Shown piece after piece: positions 3,948 to 63,882 of a DNA stretch of 64,000 nucleotides. Under the pieces are notes generated by a model. The model saw only the letters and a program-made list of their open reading frames with translations, was not told where the DNA came from and ran no database searches. Origin of the DNA: Thermoproteota archaeon. GTDB taxonomy: Archaea > Korarchaeota > Korarchaeia > Korarchaeales > Korarchaeaceae. The stretch covers positions 1 to 64,000 of the forward strand of contig JAOZFN010000017.1 of the NCBI GenBank assembly GCA_027492205.1, read 5' to 3'. The translations under genes were made by a program, and so were the position numbers. The first letter of the stretch is position 1, and the number at the start of each line of letters is the position of its first letter.

Positions 3948-4035
3948 ACTCAATAGTCCATCTTGGGCGATAAAAGGGAAGCGGGTCTGGTGCGAGGGTC
4001 GTCGCACCAGACTAGTGGGGCGCCCGGGCGAAAGA

Positions 4036-6108: not shown

Positions 6109-6186
6109 CGGGAGTCGGGGGGATGGGCTGGTAATAATACCCCCGAGCCAGGGGTCGTCGAGGCGGACGCCCGACATCGGCGGGCG

Positions 6187-7107: not shown

Positions 7108-7164
7108 GGCTCCATTGGCGAGGGGGTTGGCACATTTTTAACGCCAGCCCGCCGCGCGGGCCCG

Positions 7165-8844: not shown

Positions 8845-8889
8845 TCCGAACCGTTTTTTAGGCCGCCCCTTCACCTCTTCCCGGATCAG

Positions 8890-30087: not shown

Positions 30088-30960
30088 TTGATGGTCTCGG
30101 TGTCGGGCGGGAAGGGGGGTACGGGCAAGTCGACGGTGGCCGTTAACCTGGCCGCGCTCCTCTCGCGGGATCTCAGGCTGGTGCTGGCTGATCTAGACGT
30201 GGAGAACCCCAACGACCACATCCTCTTGGGGGCCGAACTCGCGGGCGAGCGGCCCGTCAACATCATGCTGCCCTTCGTGAACTACCAGAAGTGCGTCAAG
30301 TGCGGGGCCTGCGGGAGGGTGTGCGACACCGGAGCCATGCTGATCTCGCCTGACGGCCTCCCCTACGTGATACCCAGGCTCTGCAGCGGGTGCAGGTCCT
30401 GCTACTTCGCGTGTCCCGTGGACGCCATCGTGGAGGGGAAGAGGACGATCGGGTACACCTACCTGTCGGAACTCGAGCTCGGCGAGTCCAAGATCACGCT
30501 GGTCACCGGATCCCTGAGGGAGGGAGAGGAGCACACTCCGCCTGTCGTCCTGGCCGCCAGGCGCAGGGCGCTCTCCGTCGAGGCGGACCTGCACCTGGTG
30601 GACACCTCCGCGGGGACGAGCAACTCCGTCGCGGCGGCGGTGGACGGGTCTAGGCTCCTCATAGCAGTCACGGAGCCCACCCCTCTGGGCCTGCACGACC
30701 TCGACCTGATTCTGGAGATGGCCCAGACCCTGGGGATGGAGGCATGGGTCGTCATAAACAGGGCCGGAATAGGACCGGAAGACGACCACGTCAGGCTGGT
30801 GAGGGAGAGGGGGGCCGAGATAGTCGCCCGGATACCCTACTCCAGGAGGGTGGTGGAGTCATACATCCGGGGGGTCCCGATCGTGCTCCACAGTCCCAAC
30901 TCTCCGGAGGCGGAGGAGTTCAGGCGGCTGGCAGAGATGGTGAGGGGGGTGGTTTCGTGA
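30088..30960 (+). CDS. MinD-superfamily P-loop ATPase with inserted ferredoxin (COG1149)
   Basis: GKGGTGKST, DLDVENPN, CVKCGACGRVC, CSGCRSCYFACP, VTEPTPLGLHD. Confidence 0.9.
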   Translation: MMVSVSGGKGGTGKSTVAVNLAALLSRDLRLVLADLDVENPNDHILLGAELAGERPVNIMLPFVNYQKCVKCGACGRVCDTGAMLISPDGLPYVIPRLCSGCRSCYFACPVDAIVEGKRTIGYTYLSELELGESKITLVTGSLREGEEHTPPVVLAARRRALSVEADLHLVDTSAGTSNSVAAAVDGSRLLIAVTEPTPLGLHDLDLILEMAQTLGMEAWVVINRAGIGPEDDHVRLVRERGAEIVARIPYSRRVVESYIRGVPIVLHSPNSPEAEEFRRLAEMVRGVVS

Positions 30961-31937
30961 TCGAGATAGCGATAGCCAGCGGGAAGGGCGGGGTCGGGAA
31001 GTCTACCGTCTCCGCCACGATAGTCCTGGCCGCGGCGAGATCCGGAAAGAGCGTGATCGCCGTCGACGCCGACGCGGACGCGCCAAACCTGCACCTGATA
31101 TTCGGGGTCAGGGAGTGGGAGTGGGAGAAGTCCTACGTCGAGAGCAAGGTCGCCGAGATAGTCCAGTCGCTCTGCACGAGGTGCGGCAGGTGCCGGGAGG
31201 TCTGCCCCTACGAGGCCATCCACGTTGACGAAGGGGGGAGGTTTGCGGTGAACCAGGTCATCTGCGAGGGGTGCCTGACGTGCTCCCTCGTGTGCCCGGA
31301 GAGGGGGGCCATAAGGCTGCTCTCCGCCGAGTCGGGGAGGCTCAGGAGGACGACCACTAGCTACGGCTTCCCGCTCGTCTCCGCGAGGCTTAACCCGGGG
31401 AGGCCGAACTCCGGCAAGCTGGTGACCGAAGAGAAGTCAATGGCCAAGGAGCTTGCCTCGCAGGACTCCCTGGTGGTGGTGGACTCCGCGGCAGGGATAG
31501 GGTGCCAGGTGGTCTCGAGCCTGGCCGGGGCCAACGCTGCCATACTGGTGGCCGAGCCAACCCCGGCGAGCTTCGCCGCGCTGAAGAGAGTCTTCAGGCT
31601 CACGAGGCACTTCATGCAGCCCGCCGGGCTGGTCATCAACAAGCACGACGTCAACCCCGGGGTGACGGAGGAGATGGAGGCGTTCGCCCGGAGGAAGAAC
31701 ATTGACCTGCTGGGCCGGATCCCCTATGACGATGCCATTCCCAAGAGCATGGCCGTGATGAAGCCGGTGGTCGAGGCCTTTCCGGACAGCCCCGCGTCGA
31801 GGGCCCTGATGGAAGTCGCGGAGAGGGTCATGGCAATAGTCGACGACTGGCAGTCGTGGTTCACGAGGTTCAGGCCGAGAGAGCCCGAGCCGTACCGGCC
31901 CATCATAATAAGGCCGGAGGGGCTTCCGGGGGATTGA
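30957..31937 (+). CDS. Second MinD-superfamily P-loop ATPase with inserted ferredoxin (COG1149)
   Basis: SGKGGVGKST, DADADAPNL, CTRCGRCREVC, CEGCLTCSLVCP, NSGKLV, GIGCQV. Confidence 0.9.
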   Translation: MIEIAIASGKGGVGKSTVSATIVLAAARSGKSVIAVDADADAPNLHLIFGVREWEWEKSYVESKVAEIVQSLCTRCGRCREVCPYEAIHVDEGGRFAVNQVICEGCLTCSLVCPERGAIRLLSAESGRLRRTTTSYGFPLVSARLNPGRPNSGKLVTEEKSMAKELASQDSLVVVDSAAGIGCQVVSSLAGANAAILVAEPTPASFAALKRVFRLTRHFMQPAGLVINKHDVNPGVTEEMEAFARRKNIDLLGRIPYDDAIPKSMAVMKPVVEAFPDSPASRALMEVAERVMAIVDDWQSWFTRFRPREPEPYRPIIIRPEGLPGD

Positions 31938-40540: not shown

Positions 40541-40933
40541 TTAATAATTGGGGGGTCCAGGCCGGGTCCTCCCCGAGAGGCGCCTCAGCAGGCCCAGGTC
40601 GTCGACGAGCGGCACCCCCCCCACCACGTCGTCGATGACGGGGGCCCCCTTCTCCACCAGCCTCTCGACGTCCTCGGGCCTGAGCGGGATGGGCTCAATC
40701 CCCGGGAGGAGGTGGGGTCGTAGGAGATCGTACCTCTCGAGTGGGTTCTTGGGCAGGGACGGGGAGACTACCAGGACGTCTATGTCACTCCAGGCGTTGA
40801 AGTCACCCCTCGCGGTCGATCCGATCACTATCACGGAGGCGGGACGCACGAGGTCTAGGATGGACTCGGCGAATATCCTGGCCCTCCTCAGCCTCTCTTC
40901 CCTCTCCCTCCTCCTCCTCTCAATGACCCCCAC
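40541..40933 (-). CDS. Minimal nucleotidyltransferase (MNT)
   Basis: IGSTARGDFNAWSDIDVLVVS. Confidence 0.9.
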   Translation of the reverse strand: MGVIERRRREREERLRRARIFAESILDLVRPASVIVIGSTARGDFNAWSDIDVLVVSPSLPKNPLERYDLLRPHLLPGIEPIPLRPEDVERLVEKGAPVIDDVVGGVPLVDDLGLLRRLSGRTRPGPPNY

Positions 40934-41310
40934 TTCTCCTCGACGAACTCGATCACCCTCCTGGCATAAAAAATGGCCTCCTCCGCCTCCCTCCTCGTGT
41001 AGTACTCGTGGGGGGATCCCTCTGACCACATGTCCGCGTACCTCGGCGCCGTGTAGAATTTGTCCAGCCTCGCGCAGGCATCCCTCACGTCGTCGGGAAC
41101 CTCTCCAATAAGCTCCGAGAGCCTCAGCAGGCTGTGCCCAAAGGCAGGCTGCCCCACGCCCCAGAGGTACGCTTTGAGGGCGTACTCTGCGGCCTGCTGG
41201 GACTTGAAGCAGGCCCAGTTGTAGTCTCCGCCCTCCAGGTCCCTAATGGCTGATCGGAGCGTGTGCCTGGCGCTGCCCATCCAGCGCCTGAACTCCTCCT
41301 CGTCGAACAT
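40888..41310 (-). CDS. HEPN domain protein (HEPN-MNT pair)
   Basis: YNWACFKSQQAAEYALKA...GHSL...LDKFYTAPRY; overlaps the MNT gene. Confidence 0.9.
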   Translation of the reverse strand: MFDEEEFRRWMGSARHTLRSAIRDLEGGDYNWACFKSQQAAEYALKAYLWGVGQPAFGHSLLRLSELIGEVPDDVRDACARLDKFYTAPRYADMWSEGSPHEYYTRREAEEAIFYARRVIEFVEEKWGSLRGGGGRGKRG

Positions 41311-41407
41311 TCGGGGCGGGTCCCGCCGGCTTCAAAATAGGTGTTTGGTGGGATCCGGGGGGCCTGCGCGGCGGCCGTTATTAGTGGGGTCGGGCGCGAA
41401 CTCAGGG

Positions 41408-43765
41408 ATGGCCACCACACCCTCCGAGGGGAGGGCCGGGAGGTGGCTCTCCAGGCTCCTCCTGCTGGAGCGGCCCGGGGTCGAGATGGTCCGAACCCCG
41501 GAGACGGAGAGGCTCCTCAAGAAGAGGGTGGACGTGCTGGTTCCGGAGTCCGCCAGGCCCCTGGAGGAGGCGGTCCTCCACCACCTGTGCGGAGAGGTCG
41601 TCGACGGGGTTCCCCCGCCTAGGGTCATCGTCCTCCTGGGACCCCTCGGCTCGGGGAAGACGGCGGTGTGCGAGAAGATAGCCCAGGAGGCTGCGGCAAG
41701 GTCGAGGGCGCTGGAGGTCAAGTTCGTGAGCCCCAGCGACGTGTTCAGCAAGTGGTACGGCGAGAGCGAGAGGAGGGTGGCCTCTCTCTTCTCAGTGCCC
41801 AGGGGGAGGAGCAGGCTCGTCGTCTTCGACGACTTCGACAGCTTCGTGTCCGTGGACGTCTCCTCGATGGACCTGGACAGCCCCGGACAGGTCGCCGACC
41901 TCAGGGTGAGGGACGAGCTGGTCCACAGGCTGGACGAGCTCGCCTCTGGGGACGAGGCCATCGTGGTGGTGTTCACAAGCAACTCCGACCGGGTGATCCC
42001 GGACTACAAGAAGAGGGCCAGGATCGTCAGGCTGACGTACAGCAGGGAGGAACTCGTCCAGGTCACGAGGATCCTACAGGAGAGGTATGGGGTCGAGGCG
42101 GACCCCGAGGAGGTGCTGGAGGCCGTGGAGGAGGCCGTCTTCACCCTGGGGTACAGGTACGTGGTACCCGGAGACCTGGAGAACGTCCTCTACTCGGCGG
42201 CCGAGGAGGCGCGGAGGGAGGGGAGGAGGGCGACCATCCAGGACGTCAGGGCGAAGGCGCTGAGCGCGAAGGACTACGCGGAGTCCACCGTCCTTGACGC
42301 GGCCCTCATGATCAAGCCGAAGACCACGCTCAGGGACGTGGGCGGGATGTGGAGGGTGAAGAGGGCCGTCGTCGTTCCCGTGGCCGTGGTGATGATGAGC
42401 CCGAGCGTCGAGGCCCCCAGGGGGATCCTGCTGTACGGCCCGCCGGGCACCGGGAAGACCACGCTGGCCAGGGCCCTTGCCGGGACCTTCAATGCCACCT
42501 TCCTCTACGTCAAGCTGACCGACATATATGGCCACAGGGACCCCCTGAAGGTGCTCAGCGACGTCTTCAGGGAGGCGAGGAAGAGGCAGCCCAGCATCCT
42601 GTTCTTCGACGAGTTCGACGCCATAGCCGCGGACAGGAGGGTCAACCCGGTGGCCGCCAGAATAGTGAACCACCTCCTACAGGAGATGGAGGGGCTCCTG
42701 CAGGGCAGGAACAGGATCATCGTGATAGCCGCCACGAACTTCGTGGAGAGGGTCGACCCGGCGATAATCTCGAGGTTCCAGCCCAACGTGATCTACGTCG
42801 GGCTGCCGGAGACCTACGAGGAGCTGAGGGAGATACACGAGGTCTACGTGAGGAGGTACGGGGCCTCGTTCACGGCCGAGGAGGCTCTCAGGCTGGTCGG
42901 ACTTAGGGTGAGGGTGCCCAGGATGATATCGAGGCTCTACGAGGAGGCCGAGAGGCTCAGGCAGGCGGAGCTCGTCTCGGAGCTCGTGGACGACTGCCTC
43001 CTGGGAGGGATCTTCGAGGAGCACAGGAGGAGGCGGAGGGCCATAGAGGAGAGGCACGGCCGCGGCGACGGATATCCCCTGAGGCTGGAGCACCTGTCAG
43101 AGGCCCTGAGGAGGTTCACCGGTCTGAGCGAGACCCTGAACGCGATCTCCGTCTCGGCCACCCCCGGGGGAGATAGGGTCGTGGGCAGGGCCATGGCCGT
43201 CGCCTCGCTGAGCGACAGCGGCGAGGGGGTGGTGTTCCCTGTCGAGGCGGTCTCATCGACAGAGAGGCGGGGCGTGGAGGTGCTCGGGGCCGACGAGACC
43301 GTCCTGGAGTCGGCGAAGGCCGCTAGGGCCTGGCTCGCCCAGAGGCTGCCGGAGGCCGACAGGCGCGGCTGGACCGTCCAGTTCATCACGCCAGCGGAGG
43401 GATCCCCCCAGAGGCCCTCTGGGCCAAGCGCGGGCCTGGCCATCGCCGTCGCGATGTGGAGCGAGCTCACAGGGACCCCGATCAGGCAGGACGTCGCCCT
43501 ATCGGGCAAGGTCTCCGCCAAGACGGGGGTCGTCGGGCCCGTGGGCGGGTGGGACAGCGCCAACACGGGAAAGATCTCGGCGGTCCTCGCGGCAGACTGG
43601 GTCAGCTGCGTGGTCATCCCGGAGGCTAACAGGTTCGAGTACGGGGTGGAGGTCAGGGAGAACCTTGCCGTGAGGGAGCTGGAAAGGAGGGGCAAGAGGG
43701 TGGTGTTCGTGAGGACCGTTGACGAGGCCATCGAGGTGGCCTCCGGGGGGCGGGGCTCGGAGTGA
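41408..43765 (+). CDS. Tandem AAA+ ATPase fused to a C-terminal Lon (S16) protease domain
   Basis: GPLGSGKT/SKWYGESE/VVFDDFD; GPPGTGKT/FFDEFD/AATN...DPAIISRF; SGPSAGLAIAVA...DVALSG...PVGG...GKI. Confidence 0.8.
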   Translation: MATTPSEGRAGRWLSRLLLLERPGVEMVRTPETERLLKKRVDVLVPESARPLEEAVLHHLCGEVVDGVPPPRVIVLLGPLGSGKTAVCEKIAQEAAARSRALEVKFVSPSDVFSKWYGESERRVASLFSVPRGRSRLVVFDDFDSFVSVDVSSMDLDSPGQVADLRVRDELVHRLDELASGDEAIVVVFTSNSDRVIPDYKKRARIVRLTYSREELVQVTRILQERYGVEADPEEVLEAVEEAVFTLGYRYVVPGDLENVLYSAAEEARREGRRATIQDVRAKALSAKDYAESTVLDAALMIKPKTTLRDVGGMWRVKRAVVVPVAVVMMSPSVEAPRGILLYGPPGTGKTTLARALAGTFNATFLYVKLTDIYGHRDPLKVLSDVFREARKRQPSILFFDEFDAIAADRRVNPVAARIVNHLLQEMEGLLQGRNRIIVIAATNFVERVDPAIISRFQPNVIYVGLPETYEELREIHEVYVRRYGASFTAEEALRLVGLRVRVPRMISRLYEEAERLRQAELVSELVDDCLLGGIFEEHRRRRRAIEERHGRGDGYPLRLEHLSEALRRFTGLSETLNAISVSATPGGDRVVGRAMAVASLSDSGEGVVFPVEAVSSTERRGVEVLGADETVLESAKAARAWLAQRLPEADRRGWTVQFITPAEGSPQRPSGPSAGLAIAVAMWSELTGTPIRQDVALSGKVSAKTGVVGPVGGWDSANTGKISAVLAADWVSCVVIPEANRFEYGVEVRENLAVRELERRGKRVVFVRTVDEAIEVASGGRGSE

Positions 43766-44376
43766 CTAGGAGGGGGCTGGGCGCCCTGATAGCCGCGCTG
43801 GCCTACGCCCTGACCGTCATCCACGTCACGTGGGCGGGCATGACGCACTTCGGCCAGGTAACGTTGGAGCTGGACGCGAGCTCGGAGTCGACTCTGGTAG
43901 TCAGGAACCTGGCCGGGAGGAGCGCTGTCGTGAGGCTCGTCTTCGTGGGGGACAGGAGGATCCAGGTGGGCCGGAACGTGGGTCCTGGGGGCCTGGTGAG
44001 GGTGGACCTGGGTGGGCCGAGCGGAGAGAGGATCCTGGTCGTCACAGATGCCGGGGAGTGGGTGCTGTTCCCCGGGGGAAAGAGGGTGGTGACGAACAGG
44101 CTGACCAGCCAGGCGGCCCTCGTCGTCGTATCGGTCTGGACGCTGTTCCCGCCACTGGTGGTGTTCCTGTGGGAGTACTTCAAGGGGGTGAGGGGGGTAG
44201 CCGCCCCCTACCTCCTGGCCTACGCGCCCACGGCGGCCTCGTGCCTCCACGCCGGAGGGGCCTGGGCGGCCTTCTCTCCCCTGGTGTCGTCCCTGGCGGG
44301 GAGCGCCTCGGCCCTCCTACTGTCGGAGTACGCCAGGAGGAGGTTAATTGTCGAGGAGGGGGCGAGGGAGGGGTGA
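43762..44376 (+). CDS. Hypothetical membrane protein
   Basis: N-terminal TM helix, beta-rich loop, about three C-terminal TM helices; GTGA overlap with the AAA-Lon gene. Confidence 0.65.
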   Translation: MTRRGLGALIAALAYALTVIHVTWAGMTHFGQVTLELDASSESTLVVRNLAGRSAVVRLVFVGDRRIQVGRNVGPGGLVRVDLGGPSGERILVVTDAGEWVLFPGGKRVVTNRLTSQAALVVVSVWTLFPPLVVFLWEYFKGVRGVAAPYLLAYAPTAASCLHAGGAWAAFSPLVSSLAGSASALLLSEYARRRLIVEEGAREG

Positions 44377-44383
44377 GGGTGGG

Positions 44384-45577
44384 TCAGGCCAGGGCCTCGA
44401 GCCTCACCCCCTTGGTCTCCGGGACGGTCCAGATCAGGGCAGCGGCGAGAAGCACAGCCACCGCAGCGGCCATGAGGCCGGCGTTAAACCCGGCAAGGCC
44501 GGCGACGTAGCCCAGCAGGACCGGGGCGGCGAACGAGACGGCCCTAGCCCCGTTGTAGCACAGGGAGGCCCCGGTCGCCCTGACCCTCGTCGGAAAGATC
44601 TCGCCGAAAAGCGCCCCGTAGACCGAGAAGAACCCGCAGGCAAACGTGTTTGCGGCCAGGGCCGCGAATCCCGTAAGCCCGGGCCCGGCTGCCGTCAGCC
44701 CCAGGACCGAGGCGGCGAACATGGCGGCGTAGATGGTGAAGGTCGGCCTCCTCCCGATCCTGTCCGCCGCGACGCCGAAGAGCGCGTGCCCGAACCACCC
44801 AATGAGCCAGGAGGCCCCGACGAAGGTCGCCGACCTGACCATGGACATGCCCTTGACGGTCTCTAGGTAGGCCGGAGCCCAGGACCAGAGCGTGTAGAAG
44901 GCGAACATCCCGAGGGACGCGAGGGCGAGGCCCTTGAGCGTCCTCCCGATCAGGTCCCCGTGGAAGAGCTGGCGCAGGGTGGGCCACCCAGCCTTCTCGG
45001 AGAGCTCGGGCGGGAGTTCGCCCCTATCTTTGGCCCTCTTGTACTCCAGCCAGAGCCTCGACTCGGGCATCTTCCCCCTGACGACCACGAGCAGGAGTAT
45101 GGGGAGTACGGCCACGGCGAATCCCGCCCTCCAGCCGAACCTCGACATGACGAGGGCCGCGTCCGTAGAGGCTATGGCCATGCCTATGGGCCAACCCGCC
45201 TGCGTGAGGCCCACCATGCTTCCCCTGGTATCTGGGGGCCAGACCTCGTTCAGGATCGCCATGCCTAGGCCCCACTCCCCGCCGATGCCCAGGCCGGCCA
45301 CGAACCTGAACAGGGCGACCTCCCAGAGGTTCCCGCTGAGGGCCGTGAGCCCGGTGGCCACGCTGTAGAGGGCAATGTCAAGCATGAGTCCCCTCTTCCT
45401 GCCTATCGCGTCGGCTATGACCCCAAAGAGCACCCCGCCCAGCCCCGTGGCCACCAGCTGCAGCCCGAACACGGAGCCGATGACCGTCTTGGAGACGCCG
45501 AACTCGGCCATCATCTGATTGAGCGCGAAGGATAGGACCGAGAAGTCAAAAGCGTCAAAGGCCCAGCCAGCCACCAC
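44384..45577 (-). CDS. MFS transporter (sialate/carboxylate-like)
   Basis: GWAFDAFDF, ADAIGRK, GIGGEWG, EIFPTRVRATG; frame extends to an ACG at 45622. Confidence 0.9.
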   Translation of the reverse strand: MVAGWAFDAFDFSVLSFALNQMMAEFGVSKTVIGSVFGLQLVATGLGGVLFGVIADAIGRKRGLMLDIALYSVATGLTALSGNLWEVALFRFVAGLGIGGEWGLGMAILNEVWPPDTRGSMVGLTQAGWPIGMAIASTDAALVMSRFGWRAGFAVAVLPILLLVVVRGKMPESRLWLEYKRAKDRGELPPELSEKAGWPTLRQLFHGDLIGRTLKGLALASLGMFAFYTLWSWAPAYLETVKGMSMVRSATFVGASWLIGWFGHALFGVAADRIGRRPTFTIYAAMFAASVLGLTAAGPGLTGFAALAANTFACGFFSVYGALFGEIFPTRVRATGASLCYNGARAVSFAAPVLLGYVAGLAGFNAGLMAAAVAVLLAAALIWTVPETKGVRLEALA

Positions 45578-55202: not shown

Positions 55203-57608
55203 GTGAGATCTTTGAGCGCCGAGGGCCGGTTCAGGTTCGTCGGCGTGAGGGTCGGCAGGAAGGACGGGGTCCTGAAGGCCACGGGGAGGGCCACCTACGC
55301 CTACGACGTCTGGCTGCCGGGGATGCTCCACGGGCGCATTCTGAAGAGCCCCTACGCCCACGCCGAGGTCCGCGTTGACGCGACCGAGGCGGAGAGGATG
55401 GGGGCAGTCGTGCTCACCCCGAGGGACGTGCCCGACGTTCTCTTCAACCCGAGGCTGGTCAGCGTGGAGGAGGACACCTTCAAGGACTGGAGGGTCCTCA
55501 CCGACCACCCGAGGTACGTGGGCGAGCCCGTGGCCGCGGTCGCGGCGGCCTCGGAGGAGGCGGCCCAGCGCGCGCTGGAGGCCGTCAGGCTGGAGCCCGT
55601 CAGGGTGTACAGGCCCCTCCTCGACCCGTTCGAGGCCACCAGGCCGGGTTCCCCGGCCATCCACGAGAGGGTCATGAGGGGCGGGGCCTGGGTCGACGTG
55701 GAAGACAACGTCGCCTGCACCCTCGAGTACTCCGAGGGAGACGTCGACCGAGCCCTGTCGGAGGCCGACGTGGTGATAGAGAGGAGGTTCCACACCAACC
55801 GCAGGTACCACCTCCAGCCCGAGCCCAAGGTGGCGGTGAGCAGGCCGGACCCCGACGGCGGCGTCACGGTCTGGACCACGACGCAGACCGTCCACAACAC
55901 CAAGATCCTCATATCGCAGGTCTTCGGGATCCCGCAGAGCAAGGTCAGGGTGAAGAAGGTCTTCCTGGGCGGGGGGTTCGGGTCCAGCATCCACACCAAC
56001 CTCGTGACCCTGGTGGCCGTCGCCCTGAGCAGGAAGGCCAGGAGGCCCGTGAGGATGGCCCTGACGAGAGAGGAGGACATGATGCACGACCACGTCTCCT
56101 TCGAGATGCACATGAGGATCAGGGCGGGGGCGAAGAGGAACGGGAGGCTGTCAGGGGCGGAGTTCGAGAACGTCATGGACATAGGGGCCCACCAAATTCA
56201 ACCCTACCCGCTGCTGGGCACCGCGCTGGGCTGGTTCGTTTCCCTCTACAAGTGGGGGGCCATCAGGTACTTCGGGAGAGCCGTCTACACCAACAAGGTC
56301 CCGAGCTGCGCCCTCAGGGGATACGGGAACCCCCAGGTCACCTGGGCCGTCGAGACCGTCGTGGACGAGCTGGCCGAGGAGCTGGAAATGGATCCCGTGG
56401 AGTTCAGGCTGAAGAACTACGTGGGCAAGGGCGACCTGTTCTGGGGACAGGGGCCCACTGTGAAGAGCATCATCAGGAGCGACGGCGTCCCGGAGCTCAT
56501 GAGGAGGGGAGCGGAGCTCATCGGCTGGAGGAACAGGCCGAGGCCCGGGGAGCAGACCGGCAGGTACAGGCGCGGCATAGGGGTGGCCAGGGGGTTCCAC
56601 ACCTCCGGGGCCGGCGGACCCCTGTCCGGGTCGGTGATCGACTACTCCGGGGCGTTCCTCAAGGTGAACGAGGACGGGAGCGTGGACTACGTCACGGCCC
56701 TGCAGGACCACGGCGGGGGCACGCTGGACGCCCACGCCAAGATCATCGCGGAGGAGCTCTGCATCCCGCTGGAGAAGGTCAACGTGGTCTGGTCGGACAG
56801 CTCCACCACCGTCTACGACGTGTGCACCCACGCCTCCAGGGGCGTGTACGTGGGAGGGGAGGCCGCCAGGAGGGCCGCCAGGGAGGTGAAGAGGAAGATC
56901 CTGGAGTACGCGGTTAGGATCCTGAACGTCGCCGTGGGCCCCGAGGCCCTGAGGATGAGGTACGACGAGGAGTTGAAGGACGCGGTCATCTACGTGGAGG
57001 GTTCAGACGCCCAAACGACCCTAAGCGAGGTGGCCAGGACGGCTTGGCAGAGGAACTGGGGGTCCATCTCGGCGTCGGTGAGCTTCAGGGCCACCGCCGC
57101 ACCTCCAAGCTTCACCGCCTACTTCGTGGAGGTCGAGGTGGACACCGAGACGGGCAGGGTCAGGCCCGTCAGGGTCGTCGCGGGCGCCGACATAGGCACG
57201 GTGATCAACCCCGAGCTGGCGGAGGGGCAGGTGCAGGGCGGATTCGTCATGGGCTGGGGCTGGGCCGTCTTGGAGGACACGCCCTACAACCCGGAGACCG
57301 GGGCGCTGGAGAACATGGGGTTCATCACCGACTACAAGGTCCCCACCGCCGGGGACATACCGCCAATCGAGGACTTCAGGGTGATATTCGCCGACACCTA
57401 CGAGCCAACGGGCCCGTTCGGGGCCAAGGGAATAGGGGAGGCCGCCAGCAACCCCGTCGCGGCCGCCGTGGCCAACGCGATCTACGACGCCATAGGGATC
57501 AGGTTCTACGAGCTCCCGATCACCCCTGAGAGGATACTGAGGGCCCTCAGGGAGAGGGAGCGCCAGGGGCGGGAATCCGCCCAGGAGAGGGGGGGTGGCC
57601 TGAGCTGA
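55203..57608 (+). CDS. Xanthine dehydrogenase family molybdopterin-binding subunit (set 1)
   Basis: GGGFGS, LRGYGNPQ, THASR, GQVQGG, GPFGAKGIGE. Confidence 0.92.
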   Translation: MRSLSAEGRFRFVGVRVGRKDGVLKATGRATYAYDVWLPGMLHGRILKSPYAHAEVRVDATEAERMGAVVLTPRDVPDVLFNPRLVSVEEDTFKDWRVLTDHPRYVGEPVAAVAAASEEAAQRALEAVRLEPVRVYRPLLDPFEATRPGSPAIHERVMRGGAWVDVEDNVACTLEYSEGDVDRALSEADVVIERRFHTNRRYHLQPEPKVAVSRPDPDGGVTVWTTTQTVHNTKILISQVFGIPQSKVRVKKVFLGGGFGSSIHTNLVTLVAVALSRKARRPVRMALTREEDMMHDHVSFEMHMRIRAGAKRNGRLSGAEFENVMDIGAHQIQPYPLLGTALGWFVSLYKWGAIRYFGRAVYTNKVPSCALRGYGNPQVTWAVETVVDELAEELEMDPVEFRLKNYVGKGDLFWGQGPTVKSIIRSDGVPELMRRGAELIGWRNRPRPGEQTGRYRRGIGVARGFHTSGAGGPLSGSVIDYSGAFLKVNEDGSVDYVTALQDHGGGTLDAHAKIIAEELCIPLEKVNVVWSDSSTTVYDVCTHASRGVYVGGEAARRAAREVKRKILEYAVRILNVAVGPEALRMRYDEELKDAVIYVEGSDAQTTLSEVARTAWQRNWGSISASVSFRATAAPPSFTAYFVEVEVDTETGRVRPVRVVAGADIGTVINPELAEGQVQGGFVMGWGWAVLEDTPYNPETGALENMGFITDYKVPTAGDIPPIEDFRVIFADTYEPTGPFGAKGIGEAASNPVAAAVANAIYDAIGIRFYELPITPERILRALRERERQGRESAQERGGGLS

Positions 57609-57655
57609 CCGAGGGAGTTAGGCCTGGGGCCGGGGGCGGTATCCGGGAGCTCCCC

Positions 57656-58555
57656 GTGAACCGGTTCAACACCCACATAATCCCGGTGGCGTTCGAGTAC
57701 CACGAGCCCAGGACGATAAGGGAGGCCCTTGAGCTGCTGGCGAGGTGGGGGGAGGACGCCAAGATACTGGCCGGGGGGACCGACCTCCTGGTGCAGATGA
57801 AGATGCGGAGGGTCGAGCCGAAGTGCCTAATCAACATCAAGGGGATCCCGGAGCTGGACTACATCAGGGAGGGGCCCACGGGCGTGAGGATAGGGGCCGC
57901 CACCCGGCTGAGGAGGCTTGAGAGGAGCGGCGCCATCAAGAGGCTCTTCCCGGCGCTGCACCGGGCGATCAGGTGGATGGCCTCGGTTCAGGTCAGGAAC
58001 ATGGCCACCATAGGGGGGAACCTGTGCAACGCCTCCCCCGCGGCCGACACCGCGCCTCCCCTGATCGTCTACGGGGCGAGGGTAAAGCTCGCCAGCGTCT
58101 CTGGCGAGAGGACCCTGCCCGTCGAGGACTTCTTCACCGGGCCGGGGCAGACGGCCATGAGGCCCGGGGAGATGCTGACGGAGATCTGGATCCCCAGGCA
58201 GCCGGAGGTGACGGGGTCGGCGTTCATCAAGGTGGCGAGGACCGCCATGGACCTGGCCAAGGTGAACGTGGCCGTCGCGCTGACCCTGAAGGGGTGGTCG
58301 GCCTTCAACGTCCGGATAGCCCTGGGCTCGGTGGCGCCAACGCCCATGAGGGCGAGGGAGGCGGAGGCCGCGCTGGAGGGGAGGCCGCCCACCGAGGACC
58401 TGCTGAGGAGGGTCGGGGAGATAGCTTCGGAGGAGATCAGGCCCATCACGGACGTCAGGTCAACCGCCGAGTACAGGCGCGAGGTCACCAAGGTCATCGT
58501 GGCGGACGCCCTCCGCGAGGCTCTCGGGATGGTGAGGGTCGGGGGTGTGGCGTAA
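57656..58555 (+). CDS. Xanthine dehydrogenase family FAD-binding subunit (set 1)
   Basis: AGGTDL, RNMATIGGNLCNASPAAD, PITDVRSTAEYR. Confidence 0.92.
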   Translation: MNRFNTHIIPVAFEYHEPRTIREALELLARWGEDAKILAGGTDLLVQMKMRRVEPKCLINIKGIPELDYIREGPTGVRIGAATRLRRLERSGAIKRLFPALHRAIRWMASVQVRNMATIGGNLCNASPAADTAPPLIVYGARVKLASVSGERTLPVEDFFTGPGQTAMRPGEMLTEIWIPRQPEVTGSAFIKVARTAMDLAKVNVAVALTLKGWSAFNVRIALGSVAPTPMRAREAEAALEGRPPTEDLLRRVGEIASEEIRPITDVRSTAEYRREVTKVIVADALREALGMVRVGGVA

Positions 58556-59070
58556 TGGAGCCCAGGGTCATCAGGTTCAGGCTGAACGGGGAGTGGGTCC
58601 GGCTCAGCGTGATGCCGAACGAGCTCCTGATCAACGTGCTCAGGGAGAAGCTCCACCTCACGGGAACCAAGTACTGGTGCGGAATAGGGGAGTGCGGCGG
58701 GTGCACGGTCCTGCTGGACGGCGAGCCCGTCCTGTCGTGCCTGACCCTGGCCGTGGACGTCGACGGCAGGAAGGTCACCACCATAGAGGGCCTCGCCACC
58801 GGAGAGGACGACCTCACGCCTCTTCAGAGGGCCTTCATAGAGGAGGGGGCGATCCAGTGCGGGTTCTGCACGCCCGGCTTCATACTCACGGCTCAGGCCC
58901 TCCTGAGGGAGAACCCCAACCCCACAGAGGAGGAGATCAGGGAGTACGTCCGAGGGAACCTCTGCAGGTGCACGGGCTACGTCAGCATAATCAGGGCCGT
59001 CAAGAGGGCCGCCTCAGAGGCGGTGAAGTCCCGGAGACCTGGGCCGGCCGCCGGCGCCGCGTCGGGGTGA
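58555..59070 (+). CDS. Xanthine dehydrogenase family 2Fe-2S subunit (set 1)
   Basis: CGIGECGGC...SC, QCGFCTPG, NLCRCTGY; TAATG overlap. Confidence 0.92.
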   Translation: MEPRVIRFRLNGEWVRLSVMPNELLINVLREKLHLTGTKYWCGIGECGGCTVLLDGEPVLSCLTLAVDVDGRKVTTIEGLATGEDDLTPLQRAFIEEGAIQCGFCTPGFILTAQALLRENPNPTEEEIREYVRGNLCRCTGYVSIIRAVKRAASEAVKSRRPGPAAGAASG

Positions 59071-59117
59071 CGCGGGCCCCCGTCTCGAGGTGTGGAGAGA
59101 GTCGGGAGGTGCGCGAG

Positions 59118-60044
59118 TTGGGTCTGAAGGGTCGGGACGTGATCTCCGCCCTGGACTTCTCCAGGGCGGAGGTGGAGGAGCTCTTTCGGTTGGCCGAGAG
59201 GCTGAGGGAGGAGATCGCGGAGAGGAGAATCCTGGACTACGCCAGGGGGAGGCTGATGGCCACCGTCTTCATGGAGCCGAGCACCAGGACCAGGCTCAGC
59301 TTCACCTACGCCATGATCAGGCTGGGGGGAGCCGTGGTGGACTTCGGGCCGGAGGCCGCAACCAGCAGGGCGAAGGGGGAGAGCCTGGAGGACTCCCTGA
59401 GGATGGTCGACGGCTACGGTCCGGACGTGATCGTCCTGAGGCAGGGCACCCCGGGCATGGCCGAGAAGGTGGCAGAGGTGTGCGAGGCCCCCGTGATAAA
59501 CGCCGGGGACGGGTGGAACGAGCACCCCACTCAGGCCCTGCTGGACGTCTACACCATCTGGAGGGAGCTGGGCAGGGTCGACGGCGTGACGGTGGGCATA
59601 ATGGGGGATCTGAAGCACGGGAGGACCCCGAGCTCCCTGTCCTACATGCTCTCCCTGTTCGACGGCGTCAAGATCTGGTACATAGCCCCAGACCCCCTGC
59701 AGATCAGGCCCGAGGTCGTGGAGAGGGTAGAGGGCAGGGTCGAGTACTCCAAGACCTCCAAACTTGAGGACGTGATCGAGGAGCTCGACGTGCTCTACGT
59801 GACCAGGCTCCAGAAGGAGAGGTTCCCTGATCCGGAGGAGTACGAGAGGCTGAAGGGGAGCTACAGGGTGGACGCCGACTTCCTGAGAAAGTTCAGGAAG
59901 ATCCCGATCATAATGCACCCGCTGCCGAGGGTGTGGGAGCTCGACGAGAGCGTCGACTCCCTCCCGCAGGCCAAGTACTTCGAGCAGGCCGTCAACGGGA
60001 TGTACGTGAGGGCGGCGCTGGTCAAGGAGATCCTGGGGATCTGA
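59118..60044 (+). CDS. pyrB: Aspartate carbamoyltransferase catalytic subunit (or close paralog)
   Basis: FMEPSTRTRLSF, KGESLED, NAGDG..EHPTQ, GDLKHGRT, TRLQKERF, MHPLPR; TTG start after GGAGGTG. Confidence 0.85.
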   Translation: MGLKGRDVISALDFSRAEVEELFRLAERLREEIAERRILDYARGRLMATVFMEPSTRTRLSFTYAMIRLGGAVVDFGPEAATSRAKGESLEDSLRMVDGYGPDVIVLRQGTPGMAEKVAEVCEAPVINAGDGWNEHPTQALLDVYTIWRELGRVDGVTVGIMGDLKHGRTPSSLSYMLSLFDGVKIWYIAPDPLQIRPEVVERVEGRVEYSKTSKLEDVIEELDVLYVTRLQKERFPDPEEYERLKGSYRVDADFLRKFRKIPIIMHPLPRVWELDESVDSLPQAKYFEQAVNGMYVRAALVKEILGI

Positions 60045-60185
60045 ACTCCGGCCGGCCGGTGTCTGGCCGGGGGCCCACCCCTCTCCTCAACTATTTATTG
60101 AAGCCGAGCCCGTTGTTGCCGGATCTGGGCGCCCGAGCTCGCATAGTCGGCCTCGGGCGTCTGACTAGAGGAGGGGCAGGTTGAC

Positions 60186-61058
60186 ATGCTGCCCGAGTTC
60201 GAGTATCACAGGCCAGCCTCTCTAGAGGAGGCCGTCAGGCTCCTCTCGGAGCTCGGTCCTGACGCCAAGGTGATCGCCGGGGGGACCGACCTGGTAGTGA
60301 AGATGAGGGCCGGGCTGGTGAGCCCGAGGCACGTCGTCGACCTGAGCAGGCTAACCGAGATTCGGTTCATCAGGGACGAGGGGGACCGGCTCAAGATAGG
60401 GGCCGGGACCACCCTGTGGGAGATAGAGAACTCCAGGGAAGTCGCCCGCGGGGTCCCGGTCCTCCGGGAGGCCGTCGAAGAGATGGCGAGCTGGCACGTC
60501 AAGACCACCGCCACCATAGGAGGGAACCTGTGCAACGCCTCCCCCGCGGCCGACGCCGCGCCTCCCCTGATGGTCCACGACGCCACGCTGGTCGTCGTCG
60601 GCCCGGAGGGGAGGAGAGAGGTTCCAATCGGTGAGTTCTTCACGGGACCCGGTCAGACGGTCCTGGGGGTGGGAGAGATCTTGGCGGAGGTGGTCGTCCC
60701 GAAGATGCGCCGAGGGCAGGGGGCGGCCTTCGAGAAGCTCACGGTGAGGGAGGGGGCCCTGTCAATAGCGTCCGCCGCCGCCCTAGTCGAGATCTCCGGC
60801 GGGCGCTTCGTCGACGCGAGGGTTGCGCTCGGGGCCGTGGCCCCGACGCCAATAAGAGCCCTTAAGGTCGAGAGGGCGCTTAAGGGGCGGCCGGCCACCA
60901 GGGAGATCCTGAGAAGCGCCAGCAGAGAGGCCAAGGCTGACATCAAACCGATAACCGACGTCCGGGGGTCGAGGGAGTACAGGGAAGAGATGTCGGTGGT
61001 CCTGGTGAGGCGGGCCCTTGAGAGGGCCGTCGAGAGGGCGGGGGGTGCCTGGGCTTGA
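60186..61058 (+). CDS. Xanthine dehydrogenase family FAD-binding subunit (set 2)
   Basis: AGGTDL, ATIGGNLCNASPAAD, PITDVRGSREYR. Confidence 0.92.
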   Translation: MLPEFEYHRPASLEEAVRLLSELGPDAKVIAGGTDLVVKMRAGLVSPRHVVDLSRLTEIRFIRDEGDRLKIGAGTTLWEIENSREVARGVPVLREAVEEMASWHVKTTATIGGNLCNASPAADAAPPLMVHDATLVVVGPEGRREVPIGEFFTGPGQTVLGVGEILAEVVVPKMRRGQGAAFEKLTVREGALSIASAAALVEISGGRFVDARVALGAVAPTPIRALKVERALKGRPATREILRSASREAKADIKPITDVRGSREYREEMSVVLVRRALERAVERAGGAWA

Positions 61059-61552
61059 GGGCCGGGGGAGGCGGGATCGTCGTGAGGTTCACCCTCAACG
61101 GCCGGGAGGTGGAGGTGACCACCAGGCCCAACGCCACGCTGCTGGACCTTCTGAGGAACGAGCTGAAGATCCTCAGCGTGAGGCGGGGCTGCGAGACGGG
61201 TGAGTGCGGGATGTGCACGGTGCTGGTGGACGGCCTCCCGGTAAGGTCGTGCCTGATGCTGGCCCCGCAGGTCGACGGGAGGAGCGTCACCACGGTCGAG
61301 GGCGTCGGAGACCCGGAGAGGCTGCACCCCGTTCAGGAGGCATTTGTGGAGGCCGGGGCCGTGCAGTGCGGGTTCTGCACGCCCGCCATGGTCCTCACGG
61401 CCAAGGCCCTGCTCGACCGGGATCCGAACCCGGACGAGCGCACGGTGAAGGAGGCCATCCTCGGCGTGCTCTGCAGGTGCACCGGGTACGCCAAGATAGT
61501 CAGGGCCGTGAGGCTGGCGGCCGAGAGGGTGGCGGGGGGTGTGAGGGAGTGA
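61055..61552 (+). CDS. Xanthine dehydrogenase family 2Fe-2S subunit (set 2)
   Basis: GCETGECGMC...SC, QCGFCTP, LCRCTGY. Confidence 0.92.
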   Translation: MRAGGGGIVVRFTLNGREVEVTTRPNATLLDLLRNELKILSVRRGCETGECGMCTVLVDGLPVRSCLMLAPQVDGRSVTTVEGVGDPERLHPVQEAFVEAGAVQCGFCTPAMVLTAKALLDRDPNPDERTVKEAILGVLCRCTGYAKIVRAVRLAAERVAGGVRE

Positions 61553-63882
61553 GCTCGAGCTCCGTACTGGAGGAGATTCGGAGGGCAGAGGAGTTCCTGG
61601 TCGTGGGCAAGGGAGTCAGGAGGATCGACGCCCTGGACAAGGTCACCGGGAGGGCCAGGTTCACGGGCGACTTCGTCCTGAAGGACGCCCTCCACGTCAG
61701 GCTGGTGAAGAGCCCCATACCCCACGGGAGGATCATCGAGATAGACGCCGAGAGGGCCCTTAGCCTGGGCCCCGTCCGCTTCTTCACGGCCGCGGACATT
61801 CCTGGGGAGAACCAGGTGGGCTACGCCCTGCCGGATCAGCCCCTCCTGCCCGCGGACAAGGTCAGGTACGTCGGAGAGCCGGTCGCCCTCGTGGCGGCCC
61901 CCGACGAGGACCTCGCCGAGAAGGCCGCCGAGCTCGTGGAGGTGAGGTACGAGGAGCTCCCGGCAGTGTTCGACCCGCTCGAGGCGATGGAGCGGTCCGA
62001 CGTGCTGGTGCACGAGGACAGAGGCACGAACATAGCCGAGATGACCAGGGTGAGGAAGGGGAACGTTGAGAGGGGCTTCGAGGAGTCCGACGTCGTCGTG
62101 GAGAACACCTACAGGACCGGCCACCAGGAGCACGCCCCCTTGGAGACCGAGGGGGCCGTCGCCATACCGGACACCCAGGGGGGCGTCACCGTCATCGCCT
62201 CCATACAGTACCCGCACCTCTGCCAGAGGATCACGGCGAGGGTCCTGGGGCTGCCCCACAGCATGGTCAGGGTCGTCCAGCCCTACGTCGGCGGGGGGTT
62301 CGGCGGGAAGGACGACATGGGTCCCGTAGTGAGCGCCATGGCCGCGCTGGTGGCCTTCAAGACCGGCAAGCCGGCCGTGCTGGTCTACAGCCGGAGGGAC
62401 AGCTTCACCTCCACCTGCAAGAGGGACCCGTCGGTCGTCAGGTACAAGACGGGCGCCACAAGGGACGGGAGGCTGAAGGCCATCGAGGTCCAGATAATAC
62501 TCGACTCGGGGGCGTACGCGAACAGGGGACCGTACGTCCTCTGGAGGGCGACGATGCACGCGGGCGGGCCCTACGAGGTACCGAACGCCAAGGTCGACGG
62601 CTTCCTGGTCTACACCAACAAGGTGTTCGAGGGGTCCTTCAGGGGGTTCGGGAACCCCCAGGTCCAGTTCGCGGCCGAGAGCCAGCTCGACGAGCTGGCC
62701 GAGAGGCTGGGCATGGATCCGCTGGAGATAAGGCTCAAGAACCTGCTGAGGCCCGGGAGCAGGACCATAACCGACCAGCTCCTGGAGTCCTCGGTCGGGA
62801 TCTACGAGGCCGTCAAGCTCCTGGGAGAGAAGACCGGGTTCAGGGCGAAGTGGCGCGAGTACAGGAGGGAGAGAGCTGGCAGGGTGAGGAGGGGGATAGG
62901 GATAGCCTGCGGCTACCACGGGATAAGCACCAGCAGGGGGGTGCCGGACTGGTCCAACGCCACCGTCATACTCGGGAGGGACGGGAGCGTCACTGTGGAG
63001 ACGGGCATATGCGAGATAGGCCAGGGCAGCTGGACGGCCCACGCCCAGATAGCTGCGGAGGTGCTGGGCGTGCCGGTGGAGAGGGTCAAGGTGGTCGGGG
63101 GGACCAGCGACGCCCCCGACACCGGGGCGACGCACGCGTCCAGGGGGTCGAGCATAGGCGGGATAGGGGTGTACGTCGCGGCGAGGAGGCTGAGGGAGAG
63201 GCTGGCGGATGCGGCCGCCAGGCTGCTGGAGTGCGACCCCTCTGACGTGGAGATCAGGGAGGGCAGGGCGTTCCGCAGGGACAACCCAGACGACTACGTG
63301 GAGTGGGAGGAACTCGTCCAGGCGGCCTACGGCATGGGCTACGAGATGAGCGCCACCGGCTACTTCTTCCTCCCGAAGGGCAAGTTCGACATGGAGAGGG
63401 GTCTGGGGTACGCGTACCCGGCGTTCAGCTACATCGCCAACGTGGCGGAGGTGGAGGTGGACCTGGAGACCGGCAAGGTCAGGGTCGTGAGGGTCTGGCC
63501 GGCCCTCGCCGCCGGGAGGATCCTCAACCCGGTGCTGGTGGAGGGGCAGATCGAGGGGGCCATCGCCCAGGGAATGGGATACGCGCTGACCGAGGAGCTG
63601 AAGTTCGAGGATGGGCGCATCCTGAACCCGAACTTCACGGACTACCTGATCCCGACATCGCTAGACGTGCCGGAGGTGGAGGAGCCGATATACGTGGAGG
63701 ACCTCTACGAGTACGGGCCGTTCGGTGCCAAGGGAGTCGGGGAGATGGCGCTGATCCCGACGCCGGCGGCCATAATGAACGCCGTGAAGAACGCGACGGG
63801 CGTCAGGATAACTGAGATCCCGGCCACCCCCGAGAAGGTTTACTTCGCCCTGAGGAGGGCGGGGGTGGTAGCCGGAGAGTGA
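61549..63882 (+). CDS. Xanthine dehydrogenase family molybdopterin-binding subunit (set 2)
   Basis: GGGFGGK, FRGFGNPQ, EIGQG, THASRG, GQIEG, GAKGVGE; GTGA overlap. Confidence 0.92.
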   Translation: MSSSSVLEEIRRAEEFLVVGKGVRRIDALDKVTGRARFTGDFVLKDALHVRLVKSPIPHGRIIEIDAERALSLGPVRFFTAADIPGENQVGYALPDQPLLPADKVRYVGEPVALVAAPDEDLAEKAAELVEVRYEELPAVFDPLEAMERSDVLVHEDRGTNIAEMTRVRKGNVERGFEESDVVVENTYRTGHQEHAPLETEGAVAIPDTQGGVTVIASIQYPHLCQRITARVLGLPHSMVRVVQPYVGGGFGGKDDMGPVVSAMAALVAFKTGKPAVLVYSRRDSFTSTCKRDPSVVRYKTGATRDGRLKAIEVQIILDSGAYANRGPYVLWRATMHAGGPYEVPNAKVDGFLVYTNKVFEGSFRGFGNPQVQFAAESQLDELAERLGMDPLEIRLKNLLRPGSRTITDQLLESSVGIYEAVKLLGEKTGFRAKWREYRRERAGRVRRGIGIACGYHGISTSRGVPDWSNATVILGRDGSVTVETGICEIGQGSWTAHAQIAAEVLGVPVERVKVVGGTSDAPDTGATHASRGSSIGGIGVYVAARRLRERLADAAARLLECDPSDVEIREGRAFRRDNPDDYVEWEELVQAAYGMGYEMSATGYFFLPKGKFDMERGLGYAYPAFSYIANVAEVEVDLETGKVRVVRVWPALAAGRILNPVLVEGQIEGAIAQGMGYALTEELKFEDGRILNPNFTDYLIPTSLDVPEVEEPIYVEDLYEYGPFGAKGVGEMALIPTPAAIMNAVKNATGVRITEIPATPEKVYFALRRAGVVAGE

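Follow-up and report, generated by a model that had tools for sequence, protein, structure and literature searches.

Can a single archaeal polypeptide combine the double ATPase ring of Cdc48 with the protease chamber of Lon, and where in the cell would such an enzyme work? These questions are raised by a gene on the forward strand of the window, by which we mean the whole 64,000-nucleotide stretch of Thermoproteota archaeon contig JAOZFN010000017.1 that we analysed. The gene encodes a 785-residue protein in which two classical-clade AAA modules, D1 and D2, are followed in the same chain by a Lon (S16) protease domain, and its end overlaps a gene for a 204-residue membrane protein, ORF204. As we discuss below, we give a little better than even chances to the reading that the product is an active, self-contained two-ring ATP-dependent protease docked at the membrane on ORF204. 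The parts of the protease gene to which the text refers are as follows.

41408–43765, forward strand: AAA-AAA-Lon gene, 785 codons plus stop (open-reading-frame list, translation, Pfam)
41408–41605, forward strand: N-terminal region, residues 1–66, in which the 'RW' start of the family is kept
41606–42277, forward strand: AAA module D1, residues 67–290 (Pfam, alignment, NCBIfam)
41639–41662, forward strand: D1 Walker A, GPLGSGKT, residue 78
41747–41770, forward strand: D1 pore loop, SKWYGESE, residue 114
41819–41839, forward strand: D1 Walker B, VVFDDFD, residue 138, with Asp where the catalytic Glu would stand
42305–42973, forward strand: AAA module D2, residues 300–522 (Pfam, alignment, NCBIfam)
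42437–42460, forward strand: D2 Walker A, GPPGTGKT, residue 344
42602–42619, forward strand: D2 Walker B, FFDEFD, residue 399
Within D2: sensor-1 AATN at residue 441 and ISRF at residue 454, with Arg456
42974–43171, forward strand: helical linker between D2 and the protease domain, residues 523–588, with the family motif YPLRLEH
43172–43762, forward strand: Lon (S16) protease domain, residues 589–785 (Pfam Lon_C)
43427–43429, forward strand: Ser674 in SGPSAG, preceded by Pro673; candidate catalytic Ser
43571–43573, forward strand: Lys722, 48 residues after Ser674; candidate catalytic Lys

Two stretches of the protein were assigned to AAA (PF00004) by Pfam (E 4.9e-48, 163 bits; cut-off 21.2) and residues 607–752 to Lon_C (PF05362; E 1.5e-11, 44.7 bits; cut-off 21.1), which bears out the single-chain fusion proposed in the initial annotation, a reading of the letters alone; a script run on the translation found every motif named there at its given position. 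In searches of PDB sequences, the 785-residue protein matched Afg2, p97, and VAT (E ~1e-51), and its C-terminal ~200 residues matched human LONP1 (2x36, E 2.5e-10), Thermococcus LonB (3k1j, E 3.4e-9), and LonC (4fwd, E 6e-6). An AlphaFold2 model of the protease, built on a 60-sequence alignment, had a mean predicted local distance difference test score (pLDDT) of 79.3 and was matched by Foldseek to p97, Cdc48, and Rix7 over ~600 columns (E ~1e-25). In this model residues 1–26 had pLDDT values below 50 and were followed by helices at 31–38 and 47–60, and the region around the linker was modelled as helices at 504–524, 530–550, 560–570, and 573–583.

The ATPase modules had also been said to lie outside Lon's own clade, and this held when each was scored with NCBIfam models as well as in the Foldseek comparison. 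D2 scored 108 bits with the CDC48 model, 106 with PAN, 97 with CdvC, and 92 with FtsH but only 30 with the lon ATPase, and D1 scored 51 bits with CDC48 and 38 with CdvC, all far under the family cut-offs. Both modules, which are 26% identical to each other, align to the D2 portion of the CDC48 model. By these sequence criteria, both belong to the classical AAA clade. Because no 19-residue stretch of the 785-residue protein attained the Kyte-Doolittle threshold of 1.5 (maximum 1.33), we agree with the initial annotation that there is no transmembrane (TM) insert. The LON N domain (PF02190) and Lon_lid (PF22667) were absent from the best 25 of the 58 Pfam families matching the protein.

Spread and descent of the tandem-AAA Lon family

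Is this protein an isolated oddity? A word-indexed whole-protein search recovered, among its best 120 matches, two other proteins with AAA and Lon_C, P0004 (75% identity) and P0007 (30%); the remaining matches belonged either to Cdc48 or to FtsH-like proteins with tandem AAA. When HMMER was run exhaustively with residues 523–785, it gave 582 matches at E ≤ 0.001, and two AAA stretches plus Lon_C were found in 15 of 30 matches scanned with Pfam (28 of the 150 listed HMMER matches together with P0004 and P0007), the others being LonA-type, single-AAA, or fragments. Finally, we scanned one genome per species with two peptide patterns taken from a three-sequence alignment, one of them YPLRL[EY]H, and found 49 loci that carry a tandem-AAA Lon gene, a count that surely falls short of the family because only two patterns were used.

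Two of these loci are close to the window: L001, titled uncultured Nitrososphaerota archaeon, is 98% identical over the matched C-terminal part, and L002 encodes a protease 70–75% identical to that of the window. Another 46 archaeal loci, at 29–36% identity to the window protein, are mostly from Bathyarchaeia, with Thermoprotei, Thermoproteati, Marsarchaeota, Brockarchaeota, and Nitrososphaera/Thaumarchaeota among the other titles; one of them (L006, Thermoproteati) lies in a complete 1.43-Mb chromosome. The sole bacterial locus (L049:4949–7798, Candidatus Acidiferrales) encodes a 949-residue protein that is 29% identical to the window protein, sits on a branch of length 1.39, and may represent a transfer from archaea. 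Open reading frames (ORFs) at the loci are mostly 897–949 codons long, and those of the window's branch 785–793. The single-chain design had been called unusual, which stands as far as published descriptions go (see below), but the design is not peculiar to the window and marks a broad archaeal family.

These counts also dispose of the suspicion that the fusion arose in assembly or gene calling. The same continuous ORF occurs in 49 independent loci of separate assemblies, including the complete chromosome; the fraction of G or C at third codon positions (GC3) is 0.92 and uniformly high along the gene, in a window of 65% GC; and the ratio of nonsynonymous to synonymous substitution rates (dN/dS) for the protease is far below 1, at 0.057 against L001 and 0.14 against L002. 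An artefact is thus excluded. The initial annotation had named such an artefact, an architecture already described, and a Ser/Lys dyad that does not form as grounds for abandoning its reading, and as far as our tests reach none of the three applies.

The proteins of the family share a common set of marks, namely an N-terminal motif, D1, D2, a YPLRL-type linker, and a Lon domain with the sequence GGxDxxxxGK, and the window protein fits this description. Among the 49 locus proteins, Lon_C was matched in all and AAA in 47, the two without AAA being among three ORFs that are truncated at the end of a contig; none of the 23 Pfam families matched by these proteins was Lon_lid, the LON N domain, or the Cdc48 N domain. 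A profile of the protease part gave 244–327 bits on 17 family clusters and ≤98 bits on the other Lon proteins listed. In an IQ-TREE phylogeny of Lon domains, 27 tandem-AAA proteases fell on one side of a branch (SH-aLRT 93) from 30 other Lon domains, comprising LonA, Firmicutes-type, and other domains labelled by Pfam architecture. An earlier FastTree of Lon domains, in which labels were assigned by family-HMM score and two changes were needed, was dropped as circular. Source databases carry these proteins as 'SpoVK/Ycf46/Vps4 family AAA+-type ATPase', 'ATPase AAA', or 'hypothetical protein'.

Within the family the window protein lies on a divergent branch. In a FastTree of 60 proteins, 59 of them distinct, the window protein, L001, L002, and P0004 formed a clade (support 100) separated from the other 56 by a branch of length 1.67. 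Members of this branch differ from the main family in lacking ~30 residues of the N-terminal aromatic motif (…FxPLLYLTSWQYRLWRF…), in having Asp for Glu in the D1 Walker B motif, and in a D2 pore loop that is two residues shorter.

One relative goes further in domain content: P0124 (1120 residues) has an additional C-terminal BSP-type peptidase domain (PF04450, residues 970–1112) after the Lon domain and thus carries two different protease domains on one tandem-AAA chain.

Candidate Ser-Lys dyad and proposed ATPase motors

Would the Lon domain be expected to cut? The Ser of SGPSAG and a Lys 48 residues on had been put forward as a candidate dyad, and both the Gly-Pro-Ser sequence and Lys722 proved invariant in all 60 family proteins. 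In the AlphaFold2 model, Ser674 and Lys722 each lie at the N-terminal end of a helix (673–688 and 721–728), and we call Lys722 catalytic because it is invariant and stands at a helix start. The spacing of the pair is characteristic of the family: the index distance from Ser to Lys is 47 in 50 proteins, 48 in seven, and 49 in three. Forty-seven residues separate Ser674 and Lys722 in the window protein, in contrast to exactly 42 in the LonA and LonB subfamilies as stated in the available text of a Lon survey (PMC9569914), and the index distance is 43 for S679/K722 of E. coli Lon according to the accessible part of an earlier study (PMC2605481). The extra residues fall between the conserved Gly-Gly and the Lys of GGxDxxxxGK. 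Pro before the catalytic Ser defines an A-type centre, again in the available text of PMC9569914.

This spacing, together with the modest Lon_C score of the window protein (44.7 bits), is what could be said for an unfoldase or chaperone in which a non-cutting Lon domain serves as an assembly platform, the reverse of LonC, which kept the protease and lost the ATPase. However, other family members reach 97 bits on Lon_C, and the retention of Gly-Pro-Ser and Lys722 in 60 of 60 proteins at ~30% identity is hard to explain without catalysis, which leaves a non-cutting protein very improbable.

Conservation extends to the ATPase modules. The Gly and Lys of the D1 P-loop, the whole D2 Walker A motif, the D2 Asp-Glu and Thr-Asn pairs, and Arg456 are invariant in all 60 proteins. 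The D1 pore loop has W in 54, Y in 53, and G in 59 of the 60, and the D1 Walker B position is Glu in 54 and Asp in four, the Asp carriers including the window protein and P0004. D2, in which the pore loop is shortened to DIYGHRDP, is the most conserved part of the protein, with 90% identity to L002 and 36.5–38.5% to three main-family members.

A mechanism can be proposed from these features. By analogy with its relatives, the enzyme would form a ring-shaped oligomer, most likely a hexamer, in which two stacked classical-AAA rings would unfold substrates and thread them into a chamber formed by the fused Lon domains, where Ser674 and Lys722 would cut. D2, with intact Walker A and B motifs, sensor-1, and arginine finger, would be the main motor. 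D1 would bind ATP and, because its Walker B motif is Asp-Asp, probably hydrolyse it poorly, and it would supply the canonical aromatic pore loop at the entry.

Membrane proteins as possible partners

The oligomer proposed above would be soluble on its own. What might bring it to the membrane is suggested by the genes around it, of which two elements are needed here.

43762–44376, forward strand: ORF204, a 204-residue membrane protein with a GTG start, directly downstream of the protease gene
41378–41383, forward strand: TATA-like box TTATTA within CCGTTATTAG, ~27 nucleotides before ATG 41408 (sequence inspection)

The GTG of ORF204 at 43762 lies inside ...GAGTGACT and gives a 4-nucleotide overlap (GTGA) with the protease stop. 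As the initial annotation had read it, this is a real gene for a membrane protein: its GC3 of 0.89 resembles that of real genes, whereas a competing ORF at 43830–44510 has a GC3 of 0.59 and runs into the convergent major facilitator superfamily (MFS) gene; the modelled helices fit a membrane protein; and dN/dS was 0.094 against L001 and 0.31 against L002, a comparison with saturated synonymous sites. ORF204 is thus under purifying selection. Homologues were limited, at the scanned loci, to L001, where the gene is directly downstream with 96% identity and the same 4-nucleotide overlap, and L002, where it is also directly downstream with 44% identity over 194 residues and a 23-nucleotide overlap. 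Its relatives in the protein database form one cluster, P0272 (93%). An antisense ORF at 42937–44250 (reverse strand, 437 codons) overlaps the last part of the protease gene and the greater part of ORF204; we take it as a by-product of high GC because its GC3 (0.815) is below the 0.89–0.92 of the sense genes.

The model of ORF204, made from a four-sequence alignment (pLDDT 66.3), has a helix at 3–29, an eight-strand beta domain at 34–111 that forms a small beta-sandwich (pLDDT 81–90), and C-terminal helices at 113–141, 147–163, and 173–203, the last two at low confidence. The charge distribution suggests a topology with both termini inside and the beta domain outside. Conservation with L002 is highest in TM1, in the loop after the second helix together with the end of that helix (FLWE.F.GVRGVA.PY), and in the tail (LSE.A.RR). 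ORF204 had no match in Pfam, NCBIfam, PADLOC, or the ESM Atlas, and a fold search gave no match at E ≤ 0.001; archaeal type IV pilins came out best (8fk7, E 6e-3, TMt 0.46), along with sandwiches of the generic Ig, C2, and FN3 kinds. A pilin was ruled out by the extra C-terminal helices and by the residue before the hydrophobic stretch, which is Gly in the window and Glu in L002.

Outside the window's branch, the membrane protein stands on the other side of the protease gene. Clustering of every ORF up to 4 kb from the protease gene at the 49 loci revealed a gene of ~240–275 codons immediately upstream on the same strand in 42. Once the window's branch is set aside, the upstream side can be read in 43 loci, and the gene is present in 42 of these. 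The loci without it are L001 and L002; L012, L016, L027, and L045, where a contig end hides that side; and L049. The upstream partner has an N-terminal hydrophobic helix, an ectodomain of ~150 residues with N-x-T/S sequons, and two C-terminal helices, in the order TM1, ectodomain, TM2, loop, TM3, and five of its ten most conserved positions fall where TM2 meets the cytoplasm and in the loop that joins TM2 to TM3 (D.YFKSK.E.VS..RW). It matched no Pfam family and nothing in the Atlas, and a heliorhodopsin match in three of 30 proteins was below threshold. ORF204 and the upstream partners have no detectable homology (hhalign probability 0.5%). At L014:3369–5037, two tandem copies of the upstream-partner gene precede the protease gene. 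In another locus (L046:7840–10485, Thermoproteota), an 881-residue S8 subtilase with two hydrophobic segments is encoded 68 nucleotides downstream of the protease gene.

Because of this repeated tight linkage to genes for small membrane proteins, we infer from gene neighbourhood that the enzyme acts at the membrane by way of a partner encoded in trans. In the window, it would do so by docking onto co-translated ORF204, through the short conserved cytoplasmic loop and tail of that protein, and would serve there as a protease for quality control or regulation, a role like that of FtsH or archaeal LonB. The window branch lacks both the upstream partner and the ~30-residue N-terminal aromatic motif. 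The two were probably lost together, and the type of partner would have been swapped in this branch as the N-terminus of the enzyme changed.

Several observations weigh against parts of this reading. First, the HMMER alignment to LONP1 puts Lys722 three positions past the canonical Lys column, behind a gap, and the 4–6-residue insertion before it could displace the Lys from the dyad. Second, the shortened D2 pore loop of the window branch weakens the case for D2 as the motor. Third, ORF204 evolves far more quickly than the genes beside it, its identity to L002 being 43% where the protease has 75% and the MFS protein 87%. Fourth, because the partner types are not detectably homologous, the 'membrane partner' is a recurring theme and not one conserved subunit. 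Fifth, the joint loss of N-terminal motif and upstream partner is a single event. Finally, the bacterial locus L049 carries no partner.

Some of the same facts favour a soluble, cytosolic two-ring AAA-Lon protease whose neighbour would be a co-expressed substrate or regulator or a mere bystander on the transcript. Fifty-nine of 60 family N-termini have no TM or strongly hydrophobic segment, the exception being P0130 (1.68), and the lack of homology between partner types, the rapid divergence of ORF204, and the partnerless L049 all agree with such an enzyme. Set against it are the same-strand linkage to membrane proteins in 42 of the 49 loci and in three of the window branch, the window included, the start-stop overlap, and the concentration of conserved residues in the cytoplasmic loop of the upstream partner. 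We consider a soluble enzyme doubtful, though well worth keeping in view, and continue to favour the protease docked on ORF204.

The boundaries of the transcription unit follow from the flanks. Upstream of the protease gene is a HEPN/nucleotidyltransferase pair and downstream of ORF204 an MFS gene; because both flanks are on the opposite strand, the unit consists of two genes, the protease and ORF204. The open frame of the protease spans 41246–43765, and ATG 41408, which gives the 785-residue protein, is preferred to the longest ORF for three reasons: the oppositely oriented HEPN gene extends to 41310; the N-termini of relatives align with this ATG; and TTATTA at 41378–41383, the sole AT-rich hexamer of the spacer, lies ~27 nucleotides before it. 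Archaeal TATA boxes stand ~26–27 nucleotides before the transcript start, and the TTATTA box is likely to be the promoter of a leaderless or near-leaderless transcript. Its counterpart in L002, CCGTTATAAG, is ~32 nucleotides before the ATG of the homologue, and the two share the motif CCGTTATWAG.

The HEPN gene (40888–41310) and the nucleotidyltransferase gene (40541–41029), on the reverse strand and mutually overlapping, resemble a HEPN-MNT toxin-antitoxin module. The MFS and metallo-beta-lactamase neighbours in L002 are syntenic with those of the window (87% and 78% identity), and the HEPN/MNT pair, directly upstream of the protease in the window, is downstream of the MFS gene there. Because of this different location we do not count the pair as part of the protease unit, and it appears to be mobile.

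The pair does bear on a further reading, in which the locus is a conflict or defence module and a membrane sensor with an exposed ectodomain controls an AAA-protease effector, in loose analogy to defence pairs of an ATPase and a protease. Apart from the HEPN-MNT pair directly upstream and the quickly evolving partner ectodomain, this reading can draw on matches of the AAA modules to PADLOC IetA (104 bits) and the NCBIfam anti-phage ATPase IteA (84 bits). These matches, however, reflect generic classical-AAA similarity: with PADLOC models for IetAS and BREX BrxL, the window protein was matched in its AAA part only (IetA 104 bits, TRIP13 89 bits) and its neighbour not at all, neither the partner nor the full length of the protein is covered by any PADLOC model, and the weak BrxL match (26 bits) is to the Lon domain of P0123. 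The HEPN/MNT pair is unlinked in L002, and neighbours in the main family are housekeeping genes (phosphoenolpyruvate synthase, aconitase X, UbiD, acylphosphatase, and a thioredoxin-reductase-like gene). In the FastTree of 60 proteins, the 29 rows from Bathyarchaeota group together in a single clade, as vertical descent predicts; a plasmid search with the protease part yielded only ordinary lon genes (11 records, ≤37% identity); and one copy is in the complete 1.43-Mb genome. Given vertical-looking inheritance, housekeeping contexts, and the lack of a specific PADLOC match, a role in defence is unlikely.

Scans of the window for tRNAs and Rfam families found nothing. The following features were seen elsewhere in it.

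2676–10584: four consecutive large ORFs (443, 713, 749, and 564 residues), with no Pfam match at E ≤ 1e-8
13040–15975: an XPB helicase gene followed by a DUF790 gene, stop and start overlapping, which we take to be the archaeal XPB-Bax1 pair
30088–31937: two adjacent CbiA/ParA-type P-loop genes, each with an inserted 4Fe-4S ferredoxin domain
55203–63882: two molybdopterin-dehydrogenase gene sets of the CO/xanthine dehydrogenase type (large and FAD subunits), and between them an aspartate/ornithine carbamoyltransferase-like gene whose product is extended at the N-terminus by 196 residues

Relation to known energy-dependent proteases

How does the family compare with enzymes already described? 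With Lon (S16: LonA, LonB, LonC, and LonBA), it shares an ATPase and an S16 protease in one chain and a conserved Ser-Lys pair, and like LonA it has the A-type Pro before the Ser, Pro673 being invariant in 60 of 60. It differs in having two ATPase modules of the classical clade instead of one of Lon's own clade, a Ser-Lys index distance of 47–49 instead of 43, an extra helical linker of ~65 residues before the protease, and protease domains on a branch of their own; the window protein also lacks Lon_lid, the LON N domain, and a TM insert. The LonA model TIGR00763 gave 64.5 bits against a cut-off of 608, with neither PF02190 nor PF22667 present. The archaeal LonB model TIGR00764 gave 44.6 bits against 516.6; the TM insert and the Asp that precedes the Ser in LonB are both missing, the latter replaced by Pro.

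Tandem classical AAA modules, the best PDB sequence and fold matches, and a D1 pore loop (KWYG) like that of archaeal Cdc48 link the protein to Cdc48, VAT, and p97. The label 'Cdc48-like' is apt for clade and tandem layout and fails beyond them: the Cdc48 N domain (PF02359/PF02933) has no Pfam match and is wholly missing in an alignment with three CDC48 proteins, and the CDC48 model TIGR01243 gave 154.2 bits against a cut-off of 802.65. The C-terminal tail of Cdc48 docks on the 20S proteasome, whereas the C-terminus of the window protein is a fused protease.

The likeness to FtsH lies in a classical AAA module N-terminal to a protease in the same chain and in the proposed membrane-associated role. 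However, the protease is an S16 serine protease and not a zinc M41 enzyme (PF01434 was unmatched), there are no N-terminal TM helices of its own, and the score with the FtsH model TIGR01241 (96.4 bits; cut-off 600) came from D2 alone. The layout of two AAA modules plus a protease does have a parallel, because P0008–P0010 (1133–1188 residues), among the best whole-protein matches, carry AAA and Peptidase_M41. These three, P0014, P0017, P0022, and others (966–1188 residues) are FtsH-like, longer than ordinary FtsH, and apparently contain two AAA modules. In ClpA/ClpC-ClpP, a two-ring unfoldase of another AAA+ clade feeds a serine protease chamber, but the peptidase is a separate subunit of different fold; in the window protein everything is in one polypeptide.

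These proteins, already present in public databases under generic names, constitute an unnamed family that falls outside LonA, LonB, Cdc48, and FtsH by membership, although a tandem-AAA Lon would plausibly work like a hybrid of them. In the available text of one survey, the Lon subfamilies A, B, C, and BA each have a single ATPase domain and no new active-centre variants were identified (PMC9569914), and the accessible part of a 2008 survey of Lon_C architectures lists no tandem-AAA form (PMC2605481). We found no description of a tandem-AAA Lon in the searchable full-text literature, a scope that leaves out subscription journals and supplements, and PMC6393860 contained nothing that bears on one. 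Going further, one might see here a fifth type of Lon, in effect a new class of ATP-dependent protease, conserved in Bathyarchaeia and other Thermoproteota-type archaea as a machine dedicated to extracting and degrading membrane proteins, with anchors supplied in trans, replaced at least once, and bearing an exposed Ig-like or glycosylated ectodomain. We offer this extension tentatively and would not bet on it; if it holds, proteolysis in the cytoplasm could be gated, through such anchors, by external conditions.

The textbook energy-dependent proteases are Lon, FtsH, Clp, HslUV, and the proteasome with PAN or Cdc48, and the family mixes their designs: a Cdc48-style double ring, FtsH-style covalent coupling, and a Lon Ser-Lys chamber with altered spacing. 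If active, these enzymes would offer mechanistic work a natural single-chain two-ring unfoldase-protease, in which cooperation between a ring with a weak Walker B motif and a good pore loop and a ring with the opposite features can be studied, a test case for the replacement of adaptors or anchors, and a concrete annotation for hundreds of genes labelled only 'AAA ATPase'. The family is common in mostly uncultured archaeal lineages that abound in sediments and hot springs and whose protein turnover has received little study.

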